Source: a virus
Direction: 5' to 3' (one strand)
IMG/VR virus record: IMGVR_UViG_3300024996_000004
DNA: 64,000 nt
Shown here in pieces: positions 10,005-50,672 of the stretch. Positions within the stretch are counted from its first letter, which is position 1, and each line of letters opens with the position of its first letter. A program made the position numbers and the translations under genes. The notes under the pieces were generated by a model that saw only the letters and a program-made list of their open reading frames with translations, was not told the origin of the DNA and did no database searches.

Positions 10005-12896
10005 ATGGCTATAACACAACAAGATGCACAAATGTTAGCTGATGCTATCGTTAAATCATTAAAAGGTAACAGTCAATATCAATCCAGTAATAGTGCTTTT
10101 GCTTCATATAAAAGTGATTCCAAACTTGATATTAAACAGTTAGAACAAATCGTAAAAAATAATGGTGATATAGCTAAACAATTTGGAACCATGTTAAGAA
10201 ATCTTACTCAACGTGGTACAGCATTGGAAGGGGTGTATAAAGAATTAGAAAAATTAACTAGAAATCAATCCGAAACTACACGTAAATCCGCTTTAGCATT
10301 TGCTGACCTATTAGAAGTTGTTCGCAAAGGTGCAAAAGGAGCGGGTGACGAATATGATAAAATGATAGCCACATTAAAGTTCGTCAATGCTACTACTACA
10401 CAAGTTGTAGCTAATATGAAAGATATGGGAAAAACTTTATCAAATTTTGATGCCTTAACAGCTAAATCAGCAAAAATGACAGCTGAAAAAACTGAACGAG
10501 AAGCTCAATATATAAAGAAAATAGCTGAAGCTCAAGATGAACTGGATAATGCTAGAAAAAATAAAAAATCTACAGTAACTGCAAAAACAAATCTAAAAAA
10601 AGCACAAGATGATTTTGATGATTTTTTGATATTTCATAGTAAGAATAATAAAATATTAGATGAAACTAATAAATCGTTGAATGAGGTATCAGCACAATTT
10701 GATAATATTATAGAAACTCTTGAGGATTATAATAAAATTACTGATGTATTGACTGATGAAGAAATGCAACAAGTCAAAAATATCAAAGCTTTAAATGCTG
10801 AACAACGTAAAATATTATTAGATAAAGTCAACACTAAAGTAGGAGAAAGTGCTAAAGGATTACATCTTAGTATGAATGGTGCTGCTTCTGGTATAACTAA
10901 AAGTGCTGATAAAATGGGTAATGCGTTTTCAAAAGCCGGTGAATATAGCTTAAAATTTGGTAAATTATTAGTTAACTTAATTCCGGGTCTAGTTTCAGAC
11001 ATGCAATCTAGATTAAGATTTAATGTAAACACCACAGGATATTTGTCAGGCATTGCGCATGGATTTTCAGAACAAGAACGTGCAGAGATTATAGGCACTA
11101 ATCGTATTGGGTTACGAGGTTTAGGCGCAGGTAATGCAGAACTAGGATTCTCTAATACAAGAGAATTACAGAATACGGCACACATATTTGGTGCTATAGG
11201 TGCCGAAGCAATCCAAAAAGCATTAGCATATCAACAAACTGGTATAGGCATGGGCATCAGTACAAGTAATGCGACTGGTACAATGACTCAAATGAAGTTC
11301 ATGCACAAATTCTCGGAACAAGTTGGCATGACTGATGATCAGCTAAAAGATTTTTATGATAGTTTAACTGCTATGGGCGAAATGTCTAATGAAGTCCAAT
11401 CATTACAGAATAAATCGGAAGAAGAACGTCAAAAAATTGTTAATAATGAAATAGCACAACGTACAAAGTTGAATACTGTTTTGGGTATGAGTATAGAACA
11501 ACAAAAACAGGCTGCACAAGCTATAGTGAATTCTAAATTTAGTACTATTGAAAGTAGTATTAAAGCTCAAGTAAGCATGCAAATGTATATACAACAATTT
11601 AATAAGGCTAATCCTAATAATAGAATTGATTCACGGACTGCGAAAATTTTACAAAATACTGCTAATGCTGCAGGAACAACTGATCTTGTACAAATGCAAG
11701 GAATTATTGGAAAAAATACTGGTTTATCGGAGAGTGAAAGACAAAGAATTGCAAAGACTTTGACAGATATTTACGTTTCTGACAATAATAGAATTAAATC
11801 AGCACAAGATGCATTTATAGCTAGTGGAAACACTACGGGAAGAGCCGCTTCAGCATACCAGAATCAGCAAGTAGTTACTCAACTTCAAAGTGCTTTGGGA
11901 AGTAATAGAGCACAAAATGCTATAGAAGCTACAATAGAAGCTACACGAGCAAAAGCCATAGGACCGAACGCCGTAGGAAAGGAATCATTCGATTCAATAT
12001 GGGGAGCGGCAGAAAAAGTTGGTAATGGTTTATCTAAATTGGATGAAGCTGTATTGCGTACTACTGAAGTATTTACAGGATTGAATAAATCATTTGGTGG
12101 TGGAGCTTCTGGATTATTGAGTGGAATTGTTTCTAACGCTTTTGGATACCTTGCAGGAAAAGGAATTATAAAAGTAGGTGGATCAATTCTAGGTAGAGTA
12201 GCTGGAGGGACTGCTGGAGCCGCTGCAGAAGGTGGAATGTTAGCTTCAGCAACTTCATTATTAAAATTAGCATTACCCGCAATAACGGTAACAGCTGCAG
12301 CTGTTGCTGGAACATTAGCAGGTAGATTTATTTACAGTAAAATGGAAAATAATATTACTGGACGAGTTGCAGGTTTTCAAGTTGCAAGCATAATGGCTGA
12401 ATTGGGAAATGAAAAAGCACAACAAGCAATAAAACAAGATATAATAAGCGGCCAAGTACAAAAAACGGGTGACACTAGACGAGCACAATTAAAAGCTGTA
12501 ATTGATGCACAGAAATTGGCTGGAACTACACGTTCTGATACTGATATTCAAAAAGCAATTGGATTAACTAAACAATACAAATCATTATATAATGTAAACA
12601 TATCCAGTGAATATGCACATTACTCGGACACGTTGAAAGCAGCTACTTATTCGCCAAATCAAGCTATTGCACAATCTGCGAAGGAACAACTGGCTGCTAT
12701 GAGTAGTAGTGAAACTCAACAACAACAGAATACTAATGCATTATTAAAAGCTACTCAAGAGACAGCTAATAATACGAAAGTTACTGCTGATAAAGCCAAA
12801 GATGATAAAAATAAAGATATGAATAATGCTGCGACAACGGACTCTGCCTATGTTGCCCACTTGAGACAACTTGCAGCATCTAATTATAGTTTCTAA
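10005..12896 (+). CDS. Tape-measure-like protein
   Basis: 963 aa, helical and rich in Ala/Gly/Gln/Lys, with a hydrophobic Gly/Ala segment near the C-terminus and a late promoter upstream. Confidence 0.6.
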   Translation: MAITQQDAQMLADAIVKSLKGNSQYQSSNSAFASYKSDSKLDIKQLEQIVKNNGDIAKQFGTMLRNLTQRGTALEGVYKELEKLTRNQSETTRKSALAFADLLEVVRKGAKGAGDEYDKMIATLKFVNATTTQVVANMKDMGKTLSNFDALTAKSAKMTAEKTEREAQYIKKIAEAQDELDNARKNKKSTVTAKTNLKKAQDDFDDFLIFHSKNNKILDETNKSLNEVSAQFDNIIETLEDYNKITDVLTDEEMQQVKNIKALNAEQRKILLDKVNTKVGESAKGLHLSMNGAASGITKSADKMGNAFSKAGEYSLKFGKLLVNLIPGLVSDMQSRLRFNVNTTGYLSGIAHGFSEQERAEIIGTNRIGLRGLGAGNAELGFSNTRELQNTAHIFGAIGAEAIQKALAYQQTGIGMGISTSNATGTMTQMKFMHKFSEQVGMTDDQLKDFYDSLTAMGEMSNEVQSLQNKSEEERQKIVNNEIAQRTKLNTVLGMSIEQQKQAAQAIVNSKFSTIESSIKAQVSMQMYIQQFNKANPNNRIDSRTAKILQNTANAAGTTDLVQMQGIIGKNTGLSESERQRIAKTLTDIYVSDNNRIKSAQDAFIASGNTTGRAASAYQNQQVVTQLQSALGSNRAQNAIEATIEATRAKAIGPNAVGKESFDSIWGAAEKVGNGLSKLDEAVLRTTEVFTGLNKSFGGGASGLLSGIVSNAFGYLAGKGIIKVGGSILGRVAGGTAGAAAEGGMLASATSLLKLALPAITVTAAAVAGTLAGRFIYSKMENNITGRVAGFQVASIMAELGNEKAQQAIKQDIISGQVQKTGDTRRAQLKAVIDAQKLAGTTRSDTDIQKAIGLTKQYKSLYNVNISSEYAHYSDTLKAATYSPNQAIAQSAKEQLAAMSSSETQQQQNTNALLKATQETANNTKVTADKAKDDKNKDMNNAATTDSAYVAHLRQLAASNYSF

Positions 12897-17152: not shown

Positions 17153-17190
17153 AATAAAAAATGCTCTATAATTATAGAGCATTTTTTATT
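17153..17190. terminator. Intrinsic terminator (18-bp perfect inverted repeat)
   Basis: AATAAAAAATGCTCTATA-AT-TATAGAGCATTTTTTATT after gp21. Confidence 0.75.
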
Positions 17191-17201
17191 GGATAATTTA
17201 T

Positions 17202-18905
17202 ATGCTTTTAAATGAATTAAAAGAACTATTGATGAAACCAAGGTGGCAAACATCATTTGCTAAATCTTCTAGACCGATAGTGACAGAAGCTAAAATGTTG
17301 ATGGTAGAATTGACCAATTTTTTACCTCAAAACGCATCGTATTCTCAACGTGCTTGGCATATACTTAATGATACCGACGAAATACCAAATTGCATTGAAT
17401 GTGGTAAAGTTACACATTGGGGAAGTTGGAACTCTAGGACAACTTATTCTACATTTTGCTCTGATATATGTGCTAAAAATTCACCATTAACCAAAGAGAA
17501 GCGGCGTCAAACTGTATTAAAAAAATATGGTACAGAATATGTAACGCAATCTAAAGTTTTTAAAGAAAAATCCGAAGCTACTAATTTAAAGCGATATGGT
17601 ACAAAAAGTTCATTATCAAACGAAGATGTTCGCAATAAAATAAAAATTTCTAATTTAGAGAAATATGGTTCAGAAAATCCTTTCGGTTCAGATGAAATTA
17701 AGAACAAGATAAAAAATACCATGATCGAAAAATATGGAGTAGACAATGCACGCCATATTTCAGGAATGTCTGATAAGATTAAAAAATTGAACATTAAAAA
17801 ATATGGAGTAACACATCCATCTAAACTGGAATCAGTTAAAAATAAAAATAAAGAGACAAATTTAGCTAAGTATGGCAAAAATCATATGCAGCAACATATA
17901 TCAGATGATGCATTAACATTATTAAATGATGCATCGTGGTTAACCGATCAACATCATAACCAAAAAAAAACTATTACTGAAATAGCAGAATTTTTAGGAA
18001 TATATGATACTACCTTAAACAGTTATTTTAAAAAATATAATATCGAAACTAAACATTTTTTCACATCGGCACCCGAAAAACATATATGTGAATTTCTAAG
18101 TACATTTAACATAAAATATATACAAAATTGCAGAAATGTAATATTTCCATATGAACTTGACATTTATTTACCGTCTCACAATTTAGCTATTGAATATTGT
18201 GGATTATATTGGCATTCAGAGATTCGAATACCTAAAAATTACCATAAAAATAAATATATGTTATGTAAAGAAAAAGGAATAAGACTTATTCAGATTTTTG
18301 AACACGAATGGCTTCAGAATAAAGAAATTGTGAAATCGAAAATATTGAATGTATTAAAAATATCAAATGTGCAAAAAATTTTTGCACGCAAAACTATCAT
18401 AAAAACTGTTGAATCACAAATTAAAACAAATTTCTTTAATCAATATCATATCCAAGGAAATGGATCGAGTTCTATCAATTACGGATTAACATATGGAAAT
18501 GAATTAGTAGCTGTTATAGGATTTATTAAAAATCATGACGGTTCATTTACATTGAACAGATATGCAACATCGTGTCGTGTTGTTGGCGGGTTTAGCAAAC
18601 TTTTGACACATTTTGAAAAACAATATAATACGCCTAAAATCATAACTTTTGCTGACTTACGATGGAGTGAAGGTAGTTTATATTACAATAACGGATTTAT
18701 ATTAGATAAAGAATTAAATCCTGATTATTGTTGGACGACTGGTAAAAAAATATTTCACAAATTTAATTTTAGACATGCAGGTATGAAAAATAAATTAAAA
18801 AATTATAATCCATCTTTATCGGAAACTGAAAACATGCATAATCATCATTATTATAGATTATATGATTGTGGTAAACTGCGATTTGTAAAAAACAAAACAT
18901 CTTAA
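17202..18905 (+). mobile_element. Free-standing homing-endonuclease-like gene (Hef-like) with KYG repeats
   Basis: Zinc ribbon (CIECG...FCSDIC), six or more (K/E)KYG repeats, a PD-(D/E)xK-like ELDIY...LAIEYCGLYWH segment, and a C-terminal LNRYAT..GGFSKLL..FADLRWS domain. Confidence 0.7.
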
Positions 18906-26381: not shown

Positions 26382-27889
26382 CAGAAAAACTAAGAACAAC
26401 AGGTGATTGGACATACGAATTATTATCTCAATATTACAATGAAATAGAAATCATTGCAAAAGATGAATTGGGATTAGATGTGTATCCCAATCAATTAGAA
26501 GTCATTTCATCACAACAAATGTTAGATGCTTACAGCACGCATGCCATGCCTGTTATGTATAATCATTGGCGTTTCGGTAAATCTTTTGTTCAAAATCAAA
26601 CTGCATACGACAAAGGTCATATGAATTTGGCTTATGAAATAGTGTCGAATACTAACCCATGCATTTCATATCTTATGGATGAAAATAGTATCATGATGAT
26701 GGCGCTTGTTATTGCACATGCTGGATTTGGTCATAATTACTTTTTCAAGAATAATTATCTTTTCCAAGAATGGACAGACGCATCATCTATTGTAGATTAT
26801 TTGCTTTTTGCAAAGAAATATGTAACATATTGCGAAGAAAAATATGGCGCGGAAGAAGTCGAACAATTTTTAGATGCTTGTCATGCTTTAGAATTGTATG
26901 GTGTTGATAAGTACAAAAGAAGTAGAAGTTCCATTAAGCTTAATGAACATGAAAAAAAGCTTGAATCCATGATGTTCAACGCTAAAAATTATGATGATGT
27001 TATAAGTTCTACAGTACCCAAAAAACAATCTGATCCTAAAACAGACGAACATGAAAGTAAGTTTGCAAATTTTGAAAATATGGAACCTGAAGAAAATTTG
27101 CTATATTTCTTAGAAAAGAAAGCGCCATATTTGGAAGAATGGCAACGAGAGATTATTAGAATAGTACGTAAAGTTTCACAATATTTCATGCCACAACGAA
27201 GCACTCAATTAGGTAATGAAGGATTTGCTGTCATGGTGCATTATTATATCATGAACAGATTATACGAAAAAGGAATAGTCGATGAAGGATTTTGGTTAGA
27301 ATTTTTAGAATCACACACCGCCGTTATTGGTCAACCCGGTTACGATCATCCGTATTATGGTAGAATTGGCATTAATGTTTACGCTTTAGGGTTTGCAATA
27401 TACATGGATATCAAACGTATATGCATGGAACCGACCGATGAAGATAAAGAATATTTTCCATGGGCAGGAAATGGTAATTGGATAGAAACCATTAAAAAAG
27501 CAGCAAAAAATTATAGAGATGAAAGTTTTATTCAACAATTCTTATCTCCTAAAGTTGTTCGTGATTTTAAAATGTTTAGTATCCTAGATGATCCTGACGA
27601 AGATGTCATCAAAATTACCAACATTCACAATAGAGAAGGTTTCTTAGCTATACGTGATGCTTTAGCTAAAATGTATGATATTTCTGAAAGATTACCCAAT
27701 CTTCAAGTCTACAAAGTAGATGTGGAGACTAGAACTCTACAACTTAGACATATATCATCTCAAAATAAATATTTGGACGAGAATGAAACTGTTTCAGTAT
27801 TAGATCATCTTAGACATATATGGAATTTTGAAATTGAATTATCATCCATAGATGATGATGGTAATGTTTATGAAATATTTAACTGTTAA
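26378..27889 (+). CDS. spoVR: SpoVR/YcgB family protein
   Basis: YPNQLEVI, MPVMYNHWRFGK, AYEIVSN.NPCISYLM, AHAGFGHNYFFKNN and NEGFA motifs. Confidence 0.93.
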   Translation: MTEKLRTTGDWTYELLSQYYNEIEIIAKDELGLDVYPNQLEVISSQQMLDAYSTHAMPVMYNHWRFGKSFVQNQTAYDKGHMNLAYEIVSNTNPCISYLMDENSIMMMALVIAHAGFGHNYFFKNNYLFQEWTDASSIVDYLLFAKKYVTYCEEKYGAEEVEQFLDACHALELYGVDKYKRSRSSIKLNEHEKKLESMMFNAKNYDDVISSTVPKKQSDPKTDEHESKFANFENMEPEENLLYFLEKKAPYLEEWQREIIRIVRKVSQYFMPQRSTQLGNEGFAVMVHYYIMNRLYEKGIVDEGFWLEFLESHTAVIGQPGYDHPYYGRIGINVYALGFAIYMDIKRICMEPTDEDKEYFPWAGNGNWIETIKKAAKNYRDESFIQQFLSPKVVRDFKMFSILDDPDEDVIKITNIHNREGFLAIRDALAKMYDISERLPNLQVYKVDVETRTLQLRHISSQNKYLDENETVSVLDHLRHIWNFEIELSSIDDDGNVYEIFNC

Positions 27890-27916
27890 AAATGTGGTTA
27901 AAAATAATTTTATTTG

Positions 27917-27966
27917 TATAAATAGTTTTATGAAGTACTTGACAAACCAAATTTTCATGTTAAGCT
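27917..27966 (+). promoter_or_regulatory. Promoters of the tRNA array: TATAAATA (27917-27924) and TTGACA (27939-27944)...TG-T-TAAGCT (27961-27966)
   Basis: Both lie upstream of the leader peptide ORF. Confidence 0.6.
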
Positions 27967-27998
27967 TCTACCATATCGAAACACAACAGAGAAAAGCT

Positions 27999-28094
27999 AT
28001 GAACACAATTAATAATAATAAAAATTATGATCATAATATTGACTATAAATTTAGTCAAAGTGCTTCTTTGTCTATTGGAAAAGGTAACGAGTAA
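27999..28094 (+). CDS. Putative attenuator leader peptide (31 aa)
   Basis: MNTINNNKNYDHNIDYKFSQSASLSIGKGNE, with a purine-rich AGAGAAAAG upstream. It overlaps the antiterminator strand. Confidence 0.65.
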   Translation: MNTINNNKNYDHNIDYKFSQSASLSIGKGNE

Positions 28095-28149
28095 AATCAT
28101 AACCTAACCAGAAATTCAAAGAAGCTCGCGAAATGTGAGCTTTTTTATT
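28062..28149 (+). terminator. Attenuator: antiterminator (28062-28070 / 28117-28125) competing with a terminator (28122-28142 plus U-tract)
   Basis: GCTTCTTTG pairs with CAAAGAAGC (9 bp), with inner TGG/CCA and AGGT/ACCT pairs. Terminator is AAGCTCGC-GAAAT-GTGAGCTT-TTTTATT. The two structures share nt 28122-28125. Confidence 0.75.
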
Positions 28150-28194
28150 GTAATAAAATGATCTTTTAAAAATTTAAATAATATGAAAATATTT

Positions 28195-28278
28195 GGGCAA
28201 GCGGTGAAGTTGGAGAGTCACACCTGTCTGTAAAACAGGCGCTATGCTGAGTAGGTTCGATTCCTACCTTGCCCACCA
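28195..28278 (+). tRNA. tRNA-Tyr(GTA)
   Basis: Acceptor GGGCAAG/CTTGCCC, anticodon arm CCTGT-CTGTAAA-ACAGG, long variable arm, TTCGATT T-loop, encoded CCA. Confidence 0.92.
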
Positions 28279-28337
28279 TTTTTGGATATTTTATTCTATA
28301 TTAATAAAATATTCACAAAATAATGAGAATATTTTGG

Positions 28338-28414
28338 GGTAACTATGATGGAGTGGTATACATACTATGCTGTGAACATAGGTTTCGTCGGTTCGATTCC
28401 GACTAGCTACCCCA
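28338..28414 (+). tRNA. tRNA-His(GTG)
   Basis: G-1:C73 pair, anticodon arm CTATG-CTGTGAA-CATAG, T-arm GTCGG-TTCGATT-CCGAC, CCA. Confidence 0.9.
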
Positions 28415-28430
28415 AAGTATTCTTAATAAT

Positions 28431-28508
28431 GGTACATGAGGCTGCTAGGTGTGGCTGCTGACCTGTCACGTCAGAGATAGCTCGGTTCGAATCCGTGATG
28501 TACCGCCA
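28431..28508 (+). tRNA. tRNA-Asp(GTC)
   Basis: Acceptor GGTACAT/ATGTACC, G73, anticodon arm CTGAC-CTGTCAC-GTCAG, CCA. Confidence 0.9.
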
Positions 28509-28518
28509 ACCAATTTAT

Positions 28519-28593
28519 GGGATGATAACTGAGATGGATTAGGAAGGCACTGAAGATGCCTTGAGGTTGGATCGTTACCAACTCATCCCACCA
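28519..28593 (+). tRNA. tRNA-Phe(GAA)
   Basis: Acceptor GGGATGA/TCATCCC, anticodon arm AGGCA-CTGAAGA-TGCCT, atypical T-loop ATCGTTA, CCA. Confidence 0.85.
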
Positions 28594-28599
28594 ATTTAT

Positions 28600-28677
28600 G
28601 GATTCTAGCGCGAAGAGGTAAGCGACTCGACTTTTAATCGAACAGACTACCGGGTTCAAGCCCCGGAGAATCCACCA
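28600..28677 (+). tRNA. tRNA-Lys(TTT)
   Basis: Acceptor GGATTCT/AGAATCC, anticodon arm TCGA-CTTTTAA-TCGA, T-arm CCGGG-TTCAAGC-CCCGG, CCA. Confidence 0.88.
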
Positions 28678-28683
28678 AAATAT

Positions 28684-28757
28684 GCGTTTGTAGTTCAAAG
28701 GTAGAACGGGAGTCTGTTAAACTCTTGACGGTGGATCGATACCACCCTGACGCGCCA
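28684..28757 (+). tRNA. tRNA-Asn(GTT)
   Basis: Acceptor GCGTTTG/CTGACGC, G73, anticodon arm GGAGT-CTGTTAA-ACTCT, T-loop ATCGATA, CCA. Confidence 0.87.
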
Positions 28758-28771
28758 AACAAAGAAACAGC

Positions 28772-28846
28772 GGGTCACAAACTTTGATGATGAAGCCACG
28801 CCTCTTAAGCGTAGAGAATTCGGTTTGAATCCGAAGTGACCCACCA
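28772..28846 (+). tRNA. tRNA-Lys(CTT)
   Basis: Acceptor GGGTCAC/GTGACCC, anticodon arm ACGC-CTCTTAA-GCGT, T-arm TTCGG-TTTGAAT-CCGAA, CCA. Confidence 0.85.
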
Positions 28847-28851
28847 GATTA

Positions 28852-28880
28852 TTGACTAGGTTTTAAAAACATGTTAAGAT
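28852..28880 (+). promoter_or_regulatory. sigma70-type promoter TTGACT-17-TAAGAT with extended -10 TG
   Basis: Immediately after the tRNA array. Shares CATGTTAAG with the 27961 promoter. Confidence 0.6.
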
Positions 28881-28906
28881 AATGAAAATGTATGCGGAAT
28901 AACAAT

Positions 28907-29176
28907 ATGGCTTTATATACAAAAACACATAACCCTAAAGACATTCCTGAATCAGGCGATTTAAAAATAAAGCGTAAAATTATTTGGTATCCAAAAACAC
29001 TTCGATATTATGAAGATGGAAAAAGTTTATCAAGCTGGATTTATCAAACAAGATGGTTAGGAATCGAAACGATTATATATCGCTATAGTTATGAATCTAT
29101 TTTAACGAAAACAGGACATATTGTTAATGAATGGAAATGGGTTCCGTGGGCATGGGATCGATGGGAAAAAGTTTAA
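28907..29176 (+). CDS. Small Trp-rich hypothetical protein
   Basis: Ends WKWVPWAWDRWEKV. The start could be 28892 or 28907. Confidence 0.55.
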   Translation: MALYTKTHNPKDIPESGDLKIKRKIIWYPKTLRYYEDGKSLSSWIYQTRWLGIETIIYRYSYESILTKTGHIVNEWKWVPWAWDRWEKV

Positions 29177-29181
29177 AATAT

Positions 29182-29271
29182 AGTACGTGACCGAGCATAG
29201 TGAACGGGATCGGCTGATAACCGATTGAGAATATAATCTCATGAATGGTGCGATACCATTACGTACTACCA
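29182..29271 (+). tRNA. tRNA-Ile(GAT) with long (class II-like) variable arm
   Basis: Acceptor AGTACGT/ACGTACT, anticodon arm ATCGG-CTGATAA-CCGAT, 18-nt variable region with TGAGA/TCTCA stem, T-loop TGCGATA, A73, CCA. Confidence 0.82.
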
Positions 29272-29311
29272 CAGATAAATGTGATATTTCAACAAGATTT
29301 GAGAGTAATAT

Positions 29312-30144
29312 ATACATTGGATTTTACAAAATAATTTATTTAATGAAGAAGGTTATCAAGTATTGCTTGATAACCTTCTTCGTTTTAATTTTAAATATTC
29401 TATTCACAAAGTTGTTCCTTTTATTGGTGAATTAATTCCTGAACCCGAGATTGATACTAAAAATGTCATATGTATGGGTTCATACTCTTTGAGGAATGTA
29501 GCAAAAAAATATGAATGAAATCCCGGAGTGTTTAATTTAGAACCACAAACTTTTGAGATTCAAAAACAGCATTGGGGTGAAAATATGCTCAATTATGAGT
29601 CTATAATAGCACCATTCAAGGATGCGATTTTCACTGAAGATCATATGTTTATTCGACCTATTGAAGATTCTAAATCTTTCGCCGGTAAAATCATTTCAAA
29701 AGAAGAATTTGAAGCTTGGCAACATTCTATAGTGAAGCTTAAAGAAGATTATGGTCAAGGACAAAATTTTGGTGATCAATTAATTCAGATTTCATCAATT
29801 AAGAAAATTTATGCTGAATATCGTTTTTGGATTGTAGATCAACAGATAATTTGTGGATCGTTATACAAACGTGGTGATAAAGTTATCTATTCACCAAAAT
29901 AGATAATCATGTATATTCTTTTGTGACGAAAATTCTTAAGACTAAAGACAATTGCAAAAATGTAACATTATCTGTAACTAATAATGGATGGCGACCGCAT
30001 GATGCATTTGTGCTTGATGTATGCGAAACAGATAAAGGTATGCGTGTAGTAGAAATTAATACTTTAAATTCTGCCGGATTTTATGCTTGTGATATAGCAC
30101 AATTAGTTTTGGCATTAGATAATAAATTTAATATAGAAAATTAA
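29312..30144 (+). pseudogene. Disrupted ATP-grasp (R2K-like) protein gene
   Basis: Continuous frame IHWILQNNLFNEEGY...KKYE*NPGVF...FIRPIEDSKSFAG...EYRFWIVD, then a -1 shift near 29896-29899 into FVLDVCE..VVEINTLNSAGFY. Lesions: ATA at the start position, TGA at 29516-29518, and the frameshift. Confidence 0.78.
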
Positions 30145-30198
30145 CTTATTCTTATCAATAATTTTTTTAATTGAAAAAAGAACAAATCAATTAGCAAA

Positions 30199-30228
30199 TT
30201 GACAATCTTTATGAAATTATGTTACAGT
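30199..30228 (+). promoter_or_regulatory. sigma70-type promoter TTGACA...TG-T-TACAGT
   Basis: Upstream of small early ORFs. Confidence 0.55.
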
Positions 30229-30235
30229 ATATAGT

Positions 30236-30403
30236 ATGAAAAGAAAAGATGAATTAATAGAAGAAAAGAATCGAGAGATAGAAAAGTACAGAAATATTCT
30301 AAACAGATATCATGGAAGATGGTGGGATCAAGGAAAACGATATTTAGAAAAATTAACTAAAGAACTTGAAGAGCTTGAAAATGTTAAAGAGTTTGAAAAA
30401 TAA
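30236..30403 (+). CDS. Small coiled-coil hypothetical protein (55 aa, not in the ORF track)
   Basis: MKRKDELIEEKNREIEKYRNILNRYHGRWWDQGKRYLEKLTKELEELENVKEFEK. Confidence 0.5.
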   Translation: MKRKDELIEEKNREIEKYRNILNRYHGRWWDQGKRYLEKLTKELEELENVKEFEK

Positions 30404-30623
30404 AATTATAATTTTTATGTATGAAAAATATGCTCTTATATATGGTAACATAATTAGTTATGGATTCATGGGTGAATGTTCTGGTGAAAAATATTATGAA
30501 TTCATGTATAATTTTTGGCATAAAAAATATTTAAATTTAGGTTACAATGATATAAATTTTAATGTTTGGATTAATGCTGGAGGATATGGTTCAACATACA
30601 AACATTTATTAAAACAAAAATAA
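30366..30623 (+). CDS. Hypothetical protein (start uncertain, possibly ATG 30417)
   Basis: ORF in the early gene run. Confidence 0.4.
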   Translation: MKSLKMLKSLKNKIIIFMYEKYALIYGNIISYGFMGECSGEKYYEFMYNFWHKKYLNLGYNDINFNVWINAGGYGSTYKHLLKQK

Positions 30624-39834: not shown

Positions 39835-39842
39835 TATAAATA
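39835..39842 (+). promoter_or_regulatory. gp55-type late promoter (TATAAATA)
   Basis: Perfect match, 12 nt upstream of tRNA-Val. Confidence 0.6.
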
Positions 39843-39854
39843 AACATACATTTT

Positions 39855-39928
39855 GCTCGATTAATTTAATGATAAAATGCTGATTTTACATGTCAGACAC
39901 GATGGTTTGATTCCATCATCGAGTACCA
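39855..39928 (+). tRNA. tRNA-Val(TAC), AT-degenerate
   Basis: Acceptor GCTCGAT/ATCGAGT, anticodon arm CTGAT-TTTACAT-GTCAG, T-arm GATGG-TTTGATT-CCATC, CCA. The D-loop GG is replaced by GA. Confidence 0.7.
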
Positions 39929-43840: not shown

Positions 43841-43882
43841 AAAACCACGGGCATTGACATCCGTGGTTTTTTAGTTTATTAT
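43841..43882 (+). terminator. Intrinsic terminator whose loop carries the -35 of the next promoter
   Basis: AAAACCACGG...CCGTGGTTTT hairpin; TTGACA (43854-43859)-17-TATTAT (43877-43882). Confidence 0.65.
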
Positions 43883-45794: not shown

Positions 45795-45824
45795 AAAGCT
45801 CAAGAATATTCTTGAGCTTTTTTA
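45795..45824 (+). terminator. Intrinsic terminator
   Basis: AAAGCTCAAGAA-TA-TTCTTGAGCTTT followed by a U-tract. Confidence 0.8.
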
Positions 45825-45853
45825 TTGACAATTTTTATATTCCATGATACGAT
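45825..45853 (+). promoter_or_regulatory. sigma70-type promoter TTGACA-17-TACGAT with extended -10 TG
   Basis: Upstream of the 45877-47470 operon. Confidence 0.7.
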
Positions 45854-47972: not shown

Positions 47973-48002
47973 AAATCCAGTCAGAAATGACTGGATTTTT
48001 TA
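47973..48002 (+). terminator. Intrinsic terminator
   Basis: AAATCCAGTCA-GAAA-TGACTGGATTT followed by a U-tract. Confidence 0.85.
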
Positions 48003-48146
48003 TTGCTTGAAAATATTTCTTCAAGTTTTTCATTGACTTATGAAATATTTTTCTAAAATAATACATAATTATTTTAATTATTTTTCTATATAAATCAATA
48101 ACTTACATAATTCTATATTATCTTTTTACATTAATTACATTCACAC

Positions 48147-50595: not shown

Positions 50596-50629
50596 GAAAG
50601 CCCTAGAAAAATCTAGGGCTTTCTTTTTT
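50596..50629 (+). terminator. Intrinsic terminator after the MCP
   Basis: GAAAGCCCTAGA-AAAA-TCTAGGGCTTTC-TTTTTT. Confidence 0.88.
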
Positions 50630-50672
50630 GTATTTTGTAATGCTGATGAATATTACATTTTAAAAACGCATG

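Follow-up and report, generated by a model that had tools for sequence, protein, structure and literature searches.

The window analyzed here, a 64,000-nucleotide (nt) stretch of DNA, is part of an IMG/VR virus record (IMGVR_UViG_3300024996_000004) whose full sequence is 104,899 bp long with a GC content of 31%. On its plus strand, a prkA-DUF444-spoVR (prkA-yeaH-spoVR) operon ends at position 27889 and is followed by a 220-nt leader and then by an array of tRNA genes. The leader contains two candidate promoters, a 31-codon open reading frame (ORF), and a predicted terminator hairpin that lies between the ORF and the array, 46 nt before tRNA-Tyr (Table 1). An earlier note on this DNA proposed that the leader controls the array by trp/his-type attenuation. 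After computational analysis of the locus, our tentative reading is that read-through into the tRNA array is gated by the leader, acting as a ribosome-mediated (leader-peptide) transcription attenuator, and we put the probability of this at about 0.4.

Table 1. Features of the leader, the tRNA array, and the downstream unit, in order of position.
Position	Strand	Feature	Basis
27917-27924	+	Late-type promoter motif TATAAATA	Motif count on both strands
27939-27966	+	Sigma-70-like promoter: TTGACA, 16-nt spacer, TG-extended TAAGCT	Promoter scan
27986-27993	+	Segment 1; overlaps the ribosome-binding site and is predicted to pair with 28064-28071 until segment 3 is made	Fold
27988-27993	+	AGAGAA, ribosome-binding site of the leader ORF, 5 nt before the ATG	Anti-Shine-Dalgarno duplex energy
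27999-28094	+	31-codon leader ORF, ATG to TAA	Sequence, ORF list
28002-28052	+	Codons 2 to 18, array-cognate run; its core (28010-28038) is a period-3 AAT-type repeat	
28039-28058	+	7-bp hairpin TTGACTA/TAGTCAA within the ORF, with TATAAAT in the loop; possible pause hairpin	Fold
28062-28070	+	Segment 2, antiterminator 5' arm, codons 22 to 24, GCTTCTTTG	Fold
28117-28125	+	Segment 3, antiterminator 3' arm CAAAGAAGC; A-tract and first 4 nt of the terminator stem	Fold
28122-28149	+	Putative intrinsic terminator: 8-bp stem, GAAAU loop, U-run, tail TTTTTTATTG	Fold and family match
28195-28757	+	tRNA-Tyr(GUA), His(GUG), Asp(GUC), Phe(GAA), Lys(UUU), and Asn(GUU), all with encoded CCA	ARAGORN
28772-28846	+	Marginal tRNA-Lys(CUU)	ARAGORN, relaxed threshold only
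28852-28880	+	Second sigma-70-like promoter, TTGACT-17-TAAGAT, directly after the array	Promoter scan
28907-29176	+	89-aa orphan ORF between the array and tRNA-Ile	ORF call
29182-29271	+	tRNA-Ile(GAU), 335 nt beyond the array	ARAGORN
29342-29384	+	Strong terminator closing the unit, 20 bp, -26.9 kcal/mol	Terminator scan, fold

The array holds all four tRNAs with GUN anticodons (Tyr, His, Asp, and Asn) and both Lys tRNAs. Six of the seven tRNAs that the earlier note counted are solid calls, whereas the seventh, tRNA-Lys(CUU), is marginal, with a weak D-arm and a 4-bp T-stem, and is called neither by ARAGORN at its default setting nor by Rfam. The Rfam tRNA model recognized 5 of the 6 genes from Tyr to Asn; at E <1 it missed tRNA-Asp (28431-28508), tRNA-Lys(CUU), and tRNA-Ile (29182-29271), in which D-arms or variable regions are atypical. 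The other tRNAs of this phage (Val, Ser-Met, and Trp) lie only 12 to 45 nt from a promoter and lack a leader; thus, the main array is treated differently.

Both promoters that had been proposed at 27917-27966 belong to site types that are enriched on the coding strand. The late-type motif TATAAATA occurs seven times on this strand, in every case between genes, and three times on the opposite strand, while TTGAC[AT]-type sites, which are mostly intergenic, number 24 on the coding strand versus 13 on the other. Transcription from the 27939 promoter, which has CATGTTAAG in common with the promoter at 28852-28880, probably begins near 27973. The leader ORF carries a typical ribosome-binding site: AGAGAA-type purine motifs are found upstream of many genes of this phage, and the duplex between AGAGAA and the anti-Shine-Dalgarno sequence has an energy of -2.9 kcal/mol, close to the median of 62 long genes (-3.1) and stronger than that of random ATGs (-0.6), 74% of which pair less well. 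Together, the promoters at 27917 and 27939, the AGAGAA, and the ATG place a short ORF close behind a promoter, as expected of an attenuator, and the ORF is presumably translated. A longer frame of ~79 to 80 aa, open from 27852 (a gene-caller merge), was rejected because it has no ribosome-binding site, overlaps spoVR, and includes the promoters. Comparison with a soil-metagenome variant gave seven differences in the last 150 nt of spoVR, six of them at third codon positions, and none over 27848-28045, a stretch that includes both promoters and the leader's first half; this divergence is patchy and uninformative.

Residues 2 to 18 of the leader peptide read NTINNNKNYDHNIDYKF, and 16 of these 17 are N, K, Y, D, H, F, or I, the set that had been matched to the downstream tRNAs. 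We shuffled the underlying 51 nt (12% GC) and kept the stop-free outcomes as a null. The mean was 12 of 17 residues in the set, with P = 0.007 for 16 or more and P = 0.0015 when all seven amino acids also had to be present; shuffling of the whole ORF gave P = 0.0005 for the best window. Across 105 kb and six frames, stop-free 17-codon windows with at least 16 residues in the set occur at six loci, and just two of these, the leader and the C terminus of one protein, contain all seven amino acids. For the phage proteome as a whole, 40.5% of residues are in the set. Array tRNAs cover six of the ten commonest codons of the phage, and the four that are uncovered (GAA, TTA, CAA, and ATA, together 16% of phage codons) are all absent from codons 2 to 18. 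Past F18 the enrichment drops, as the earlier note had described: CAA appears at codon 20, after which Leu (TTG) and Glu (GAG) return. The match between leader codons and array is genuine, and we give it moderate weight.

The same codons also fit another explanation, namely, that the locus is an ordinary small transcription unit in which the promoters and a standard terminator flank a short ORF, be it a gene for a minor peptide or a frame without meaning. We consider this nearly as likely as an attenuator. The codon match would then follow from extreme AT-richness and a low-complexity (AAT)n tract. The core of the run is a degenerate period-3 AAT repeat that resembles such a tract, and 7 of the 9 single-base neighbors of AAT encode residues of the set; a decayed poly-Asn tract would therefore give a similar composition without any selection for sensing, which counts against an attenuator. 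However, the 64-kb window has no other period-3 repeat, and the ORF reads this one in the Asn frame, so such tracts are no habit of this genome. In relatives, membrane-type small ORFs occupy the slot after spoVR, whereas the leader peptide is hydrophilic and has low complexity, and in this respect too an ordinary unit fits less well.

The hairpin reported at 28122-28149 is present and is followed by a U-run. Its arms, AAGCUCGC and GUGAGCUU (28122-28142), fold with -11.4 kcal/mol, and additional pairs between the A-tract and the U-tract lengthen it to 28118-28146 and bring the energy to -14.1 kcal/mol. A consensus terminator scanner missed this hairpin, presumably because the stem reaches into the U-run. 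The hairpin probably terminates transcription. The element at 28121-28149 agrees in form, tail, and spacing with the terminators at 17159, 43842, 45795, and 47973, which belong to a family (17159-17190, 43842-43875, 45795-45830, 47973-48004, and 50596-50630) defined by an A-tract, a GC-cored stem, and the tail TTTTTTATTG.

Several properties of this terminator and its surroundings weigh against attenuation and are what an ordinary unit would have. The terminator is of a generic type and lies 27 nt past the ORF stop, compared with 26 to 36 nt after ordinary genes. Hairpins with T-runs also lie 7 to 18 nt before the genes at 17202 and 31716, suggesting that leaky read-through is normal in this phage. 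If the unit is ordinary, the module would also end the prkA-yeaH-spoVR operon, and the tRNAs would be expressed constitutively, either by leaky read-through or from a promoter at TTTAAATA. This sequence (28173-28180) matches the late-type motif at 7 of 8 positions and lies 14 nt before tRNA-Tyr, a spacing that resembles that of tRNA-Val and tRNA-Trp behind their motifs; it may be an unrecognized promoter. However, it departs from A2, which is invariant across all 15 coding-strand [TG]ATAAATA sites. We found no sigma-70-like site of at least 9/12 between the terminator and tRNA-Tyr (28150-28194), a point in favor of attenuation.

The position after spoVR is conserved as a site for small genes, and its layout in a relative bears on the same question. 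In a contig from a metagenome-assembled genome (L010) whose SpoVR is 62% identical, 11500-11770 contains the late-type promoter TGTATAAATAGT, an unrelated hydrophobic ORF of 48 aa, and a similar terminator with the tail CTTTTTATTG; a Clp protease gene comes next, and there are no tRNAs. The terminator in our window may therefore simply close the prkA operon together with a small gene, as it would in an ordinary unit.

The antiterminator provides the second line of evidence for attenuation. The pairing proposed between codons 22 to 24 (GCTTCTTTG, segment 2) and 28117-28125 (CAAAGAAGC, segment 3) is found in the minimum-energy fold. A perfect 9-nt complement that overlaps the 5' arm of the terminator by at least 3 nt arose in only 3 of 3,000 dinucleotide shuffles of the upstream leader (~0.001), and the complement is the longest among the 13 terminator-like hairpins of the genome. 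Upstream complements of 8 nt at 2 of the 12 other terminators speak against a special role, and given both results we take a realistic P to be 0.001 to 0.02. An ordinary unit would treat the 9-bp complement as the remnant of a decayed terminator copy, and 28055-28077 does look like a core-less copy that starts with TCAAAG and ends with CTTTGTCTATTG. At two positions, however, segment 2 departs from the 3' arm of the terminator itself, and each change replaces a wobble or a mismatch by Watson-Crick pairing to segment 3. Decay would not improve the pairing in this way; thus, selection on pairing is favored over a decaying duplicate. An ordinary unit requires two independent coincidences, the codon match (P ~0.007) and the pairing (P ~0.001 to 0.02), and since both are unlikely by chance, they weigh toward an attenuator.

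The leader is strongly folded relative to shuffled sequences (z = -4.9 for the whole leader and z = -3.14 for 27974-28116, without the terminator). This property would also suit a structured 175-nt transcript that acts without translation and in which the ORF is incidental, such as a switch for temperature, a protein, or a small molecule or a stable small RNA ending at the terminator. When the transcript is folded at full length, its two ends pair with each other, and the U-tract side sequesters the ribosome-binding site and the start codon, which would block translation. In addition, segment 1 is like segment 3 and segment 2 is like segment 4 (the 3' arm of the terminator), which allows several alternative pairings. 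An RNA that works in this way is nevertheless unlikely: no Rfam family matches at E <1, no conserved core resembling a ligand pocket can be defined from a single sequence, and the normal ribosome-binding site and array-matched codons would be left unexplained.

To bring translation into the folding, we treated everything up to 13 nt past the A-site as ribosome covered. When the A-site is at codon 18 or later, the lower terminator stem is predicted to form with P = 0.97 to 1.0. When the ribosome is held at codons 2 to 10 or 15 to 17, the probability of the terminator falls to ~0.6 to 0.67, and without a ribosome it is 0.81; a stall at codons 12 to 14 gives no help, and there a small local hairpin captures segment 2. 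Before segment 4 exists, pairing of segments 2 and 3 has a probability of 0.98 to 1.0 if segment 2 is free, whether or not the upstream part is included, and the pairing of segment 1 is predicted to be displaced as soon as segment 3 exists. The order of folding would thus favor the antiterminator: in the model, a ribosome that has not passed approximately codon 17 yields the antiterminator before the terminator 3' arm has been made, and a ribosome at the stop codon yields the terminator only.

The switch predicted by this model runs in the direction that the earlier note had anticipated, but its range at equilibrium is modest (terminator probability of ~0.65 versus 1.0). The two structures had also been said to exclude each other. 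They share only 4 nt (28122-28125), so that exclusion is partial and a 6-bp antiterminator coexists with a 7-bp terminator; what stands is a competition in which the antiterminator is predicted to form first. Moreover, a ribosome on the stop codon covers neither arm and sits between them. Each of these properties weighs against an attenuator. The comparison with trp/his-type attenuation is partly borne out, by the nonrandom anatomy and by the behavior in silico, and it is weakened by the generic terminator and the 4-nt overlap.

If the leader is an attenuator, transcripts would start from either of the two promoters (27917 or 27939), and a ribosome would load at AGAGAA/ATG and read 17 codons that are almost all decoded by tRNA species encoded downstream. 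A ribosome that reaches the UAA (28092) would sit between segments 2 and 3; segment 3 would pair with segment 4, and the resulting terminator would end transcription at 28146-28149. If the ribosome were delayed in codons 2 to 17, or had never loaded, segment 2 would pair with segment 3 once the latter exits the polymerase. This pairing would deprive the terminator stem of its four basal base pairs and allow more polymerases to reach the genes from tRNA-Tyr to tRNA-Lys. On this reading, ribosome position would change read-through.

The anatomy resembles that of the thr (Thr and Ile), ilvGMEDA (Ile, Leu, and Val), trp, his, and pheA attenuators; the scheme for pheA has been described (PMC3082878). 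These also have a short promoter-proximal ORF with regulatory codons (multivalent in thr and ilvGMEDA), an intrinsic terminator upstream of the genes under control, and alternative 1:2, 2:3, and 3:4 pairings. In contrast to these enterobacterial operons, the targets of the phage leader would be tRNAs rather than biosynthetic enzymes, seven amino acids are represented, and antiterminator and terminator have only 4 nt in common. Its stop codon lies between segments 2 and 3, unlike in trp-type leaders, so that the ribosome does not mask segment 2, and with its weak 1:2 pairing an untranslated leader is predicted to favor the antiterminator instead of showing super-attenuation as trp does. In the trp leader of Bacillus subtilis, the antiterminator and terminator overlap by only four nucleotides and are alternative all the same, which would show that 4 nt can suffice; that leader is controlled by a protein (TRAP), whereas we propose ribosome control for the phage leader.

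Other leaders share the logic of supply. Like the phage leader in our proposal, the pheST (pheM) leader and the T-box leaders of aminoacyl-tRNA synthetase genes use attenuation to couple the supply of translation components to the charging or availability of the cognate tRNA. The target of the pheM leader is a synthetase rather than tRNAs. In T-box leaders, which lack an ORF, uncharged tRNA is sensed through direct contact between RNAs, whereas the phage leader has an ORF and no T-box match. A T-box or any other Rfam element was rejected because no family other than tRNA matched at E <1, and cmscan of 27000-30500 at E values of up to 1 returned tRNA matches and two chance-level matches elsewhere only. 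The array itself is similar to the tRNA clusters of phage T4 and other large phages, which are packed arrays in accessory regions, cotranscribed from upstream promoters and processed from a long precursor. Full-text literature searches found no leader-peptide control of tRNA genes or of phage tRNA arrays. A parallel with a possible attenuator-like region upstream of Escherichia coli pheV was set aside; one paper gives the pheU and pheV leaders as 3 to 4 nt.

The purpose of such an attenuator would be feedback: tRNA output would rise when the decoding of the heavily used NAY, AAR, UUY, and AUY codons becomes limiting and fall once decoding is plentiful. The same circuit would include, as a special case, a response to host anticodon nucleases. 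Supply-demand feedback for AT-rich codons is the most economical explanation of the anatomy, requiring fewer assumptions than the nuclease rescue put forward in the earlier note, in which replacement tRNAs would be switched on when PrrC, PARIS AriB, retron PtuAB, or colicin E5-type nucleases destroy host tRNAs. The four target tRNAs of colicin E5 are those for Tyr, His, Asn, and Asp. The complete GUN-anticodon set of the array and its two Lys tRNAs would suit a counter-defense role, as would a gene for a PTH2 peptidyl-tRNA hydrolase 6 kb upstream of the leader. Phage tRNAs have also been hypothesized in the literature to counter PrrC, colicin D/E5, and VapC-type tRNases, with tRNA-Lys(UUU) named as a PrrC target and four tRNAs as targets of colicin E5 (PMC10264068). 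On the other side, the codons covered are six of the ten that the phage uses most, and the sequence holds nothing that separates nuclease attack from plain codon demand. Nuclease rescue is thus an attractive speculation without specific support, and we rate it a long shot.

A related proposal is a multichannel sensor, in which the ribosome would stall, and the replacement set would be switched on, whenever a single one among six or seven tRNA species runs short. This would be the first attenuator known for tRNA genes, and we hold it to be improbable. If true, it would amount to an inducible tRNA-rescue circuit, whether depletion occurs through nucleases that act on queuosine-family and lysine tRNAs or otherwise.

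Phage tRNA genes are usually viewed as constitutive helpers in codon usage or as passive decoys against tRNA-cleaving defenses. If the attenuator is real, these tRNA genes would instead be wired to a sensor of translation speed that reads the very codons they decode, forming a homeostatic decoding loop in which a known attenuation mechanism is applied to a new class of targets. It would also be a genetic part of ~220 nt that reports a shortage of several tRNAs together, and the choice between demand compensation and counter-defense would become experimentally approachable.

Comparative support for an attenuator was sought and not obtained, which weakens the case for it. Searches of INPHARED, IMG/VR, JGI metagenomes, GTDB genomes, and Logan-derived relatives turned up no homologue of the leader or of the array, and hence no covariation; the only copies of the leader stretch are identical ones in other assemblies of this phage. 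In 50,697 phage records, megablast and blastn with the leader and the array returned nothing or similarity to single tRNAs only, and the exact terminator pattern has no match in IMG/VR. Relatives of spoVR at 45 to 64% identity (IMG/VR and a set of 5.8 billion proteins) have no tRNAs within up to 10 kb. The 89-aa ORF has no homologue but itself among the 5.8 billion proteins, and a 986-aa adaptor protein has no close relative in IMG/VR. Core patterns of tRNA-Asn and tRNA-Tyr hit 29 IMG/VR contigs and 2 GTDB contigs, and the IMG/VR contigs that were scanned have another array order; Tyr-His and Lys-Asn adjacency patterns have no match in JGI metagenomes. Upstream of homologous tRNA-Tyr genes at 17 other phage loci (16 IMG/VR phage contigs and phage Mendera), we found neither similarity to the leader nor an ORF rich in cognate codons.

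The record itself is probably a false closure, i.e., a 105-kb "circle" made from a fragment of a jumbo phage. The 40-bp overlap of its ends appears to fall inside a repeat-protein gene, an ORF runs past the contig end (another assembly places a DUF285 gene just beyond), and proteins identical to those of the window are found on contigs of up to 295 kb, all of which indicates that the record is a fragment of a larger phage. Extension past the contig ends (L046 and L047) gained only ~2 kb. The closest structural proteins are those of the jumbo phages XacN1, CM1/RAS14, and Xoo-sp13, at 44 to 47% identity, and the sequencing runs that contain the phage are bioreactor, wastewater, and soil metagenomes. 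Two runs labeled as RNA are marked as probable DNA.

Several smaller features of the window were also recorded. Within the array, the spacer between tRNA-Tyr and tRNA-His (28279-28338) is 60 nt long, compared with 6 to 16 nt elsewhere, and has a weak promoter-like TGGATA-16-TAAAAT. Among the outlying tRNAs, tRNA-Val(UAC) (39835-39928), which ARAGORN calls only at the relaxed threshold, begins 12 nt past TATAAATA, and tRNA-Trp (45716) lies 20 nt past GATAAATA. On the minus strand, 28058-28030 holds a 10/12 sigma-70-like TTGACT-17-TATGAT that would direct antisense transcription out of the leader ORF; TTGACT is present on both strands of the palindrome at 28039-28058. In several terminators of the TTTTTTATTG-tail family, the tail continues straight into the TTGACA of the next promoter.

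Downstream of the tRNA unit, a gene for an R2K-type ATP-grasp protein (29528-30144) is split into ORFs of 124 aa and 73 aa. Three homologues were found for this neighbor, and the two of their loci that were retrieved show no evident syntenic array, as judged from the called genes alone. One homologue is a single protein of 213 aa with both R2K domains, and the others are 174 to 184 aa long. The R2K gene may be broken or recoded in this phage; one of the relatives also has a separate R2K fragment ORF.

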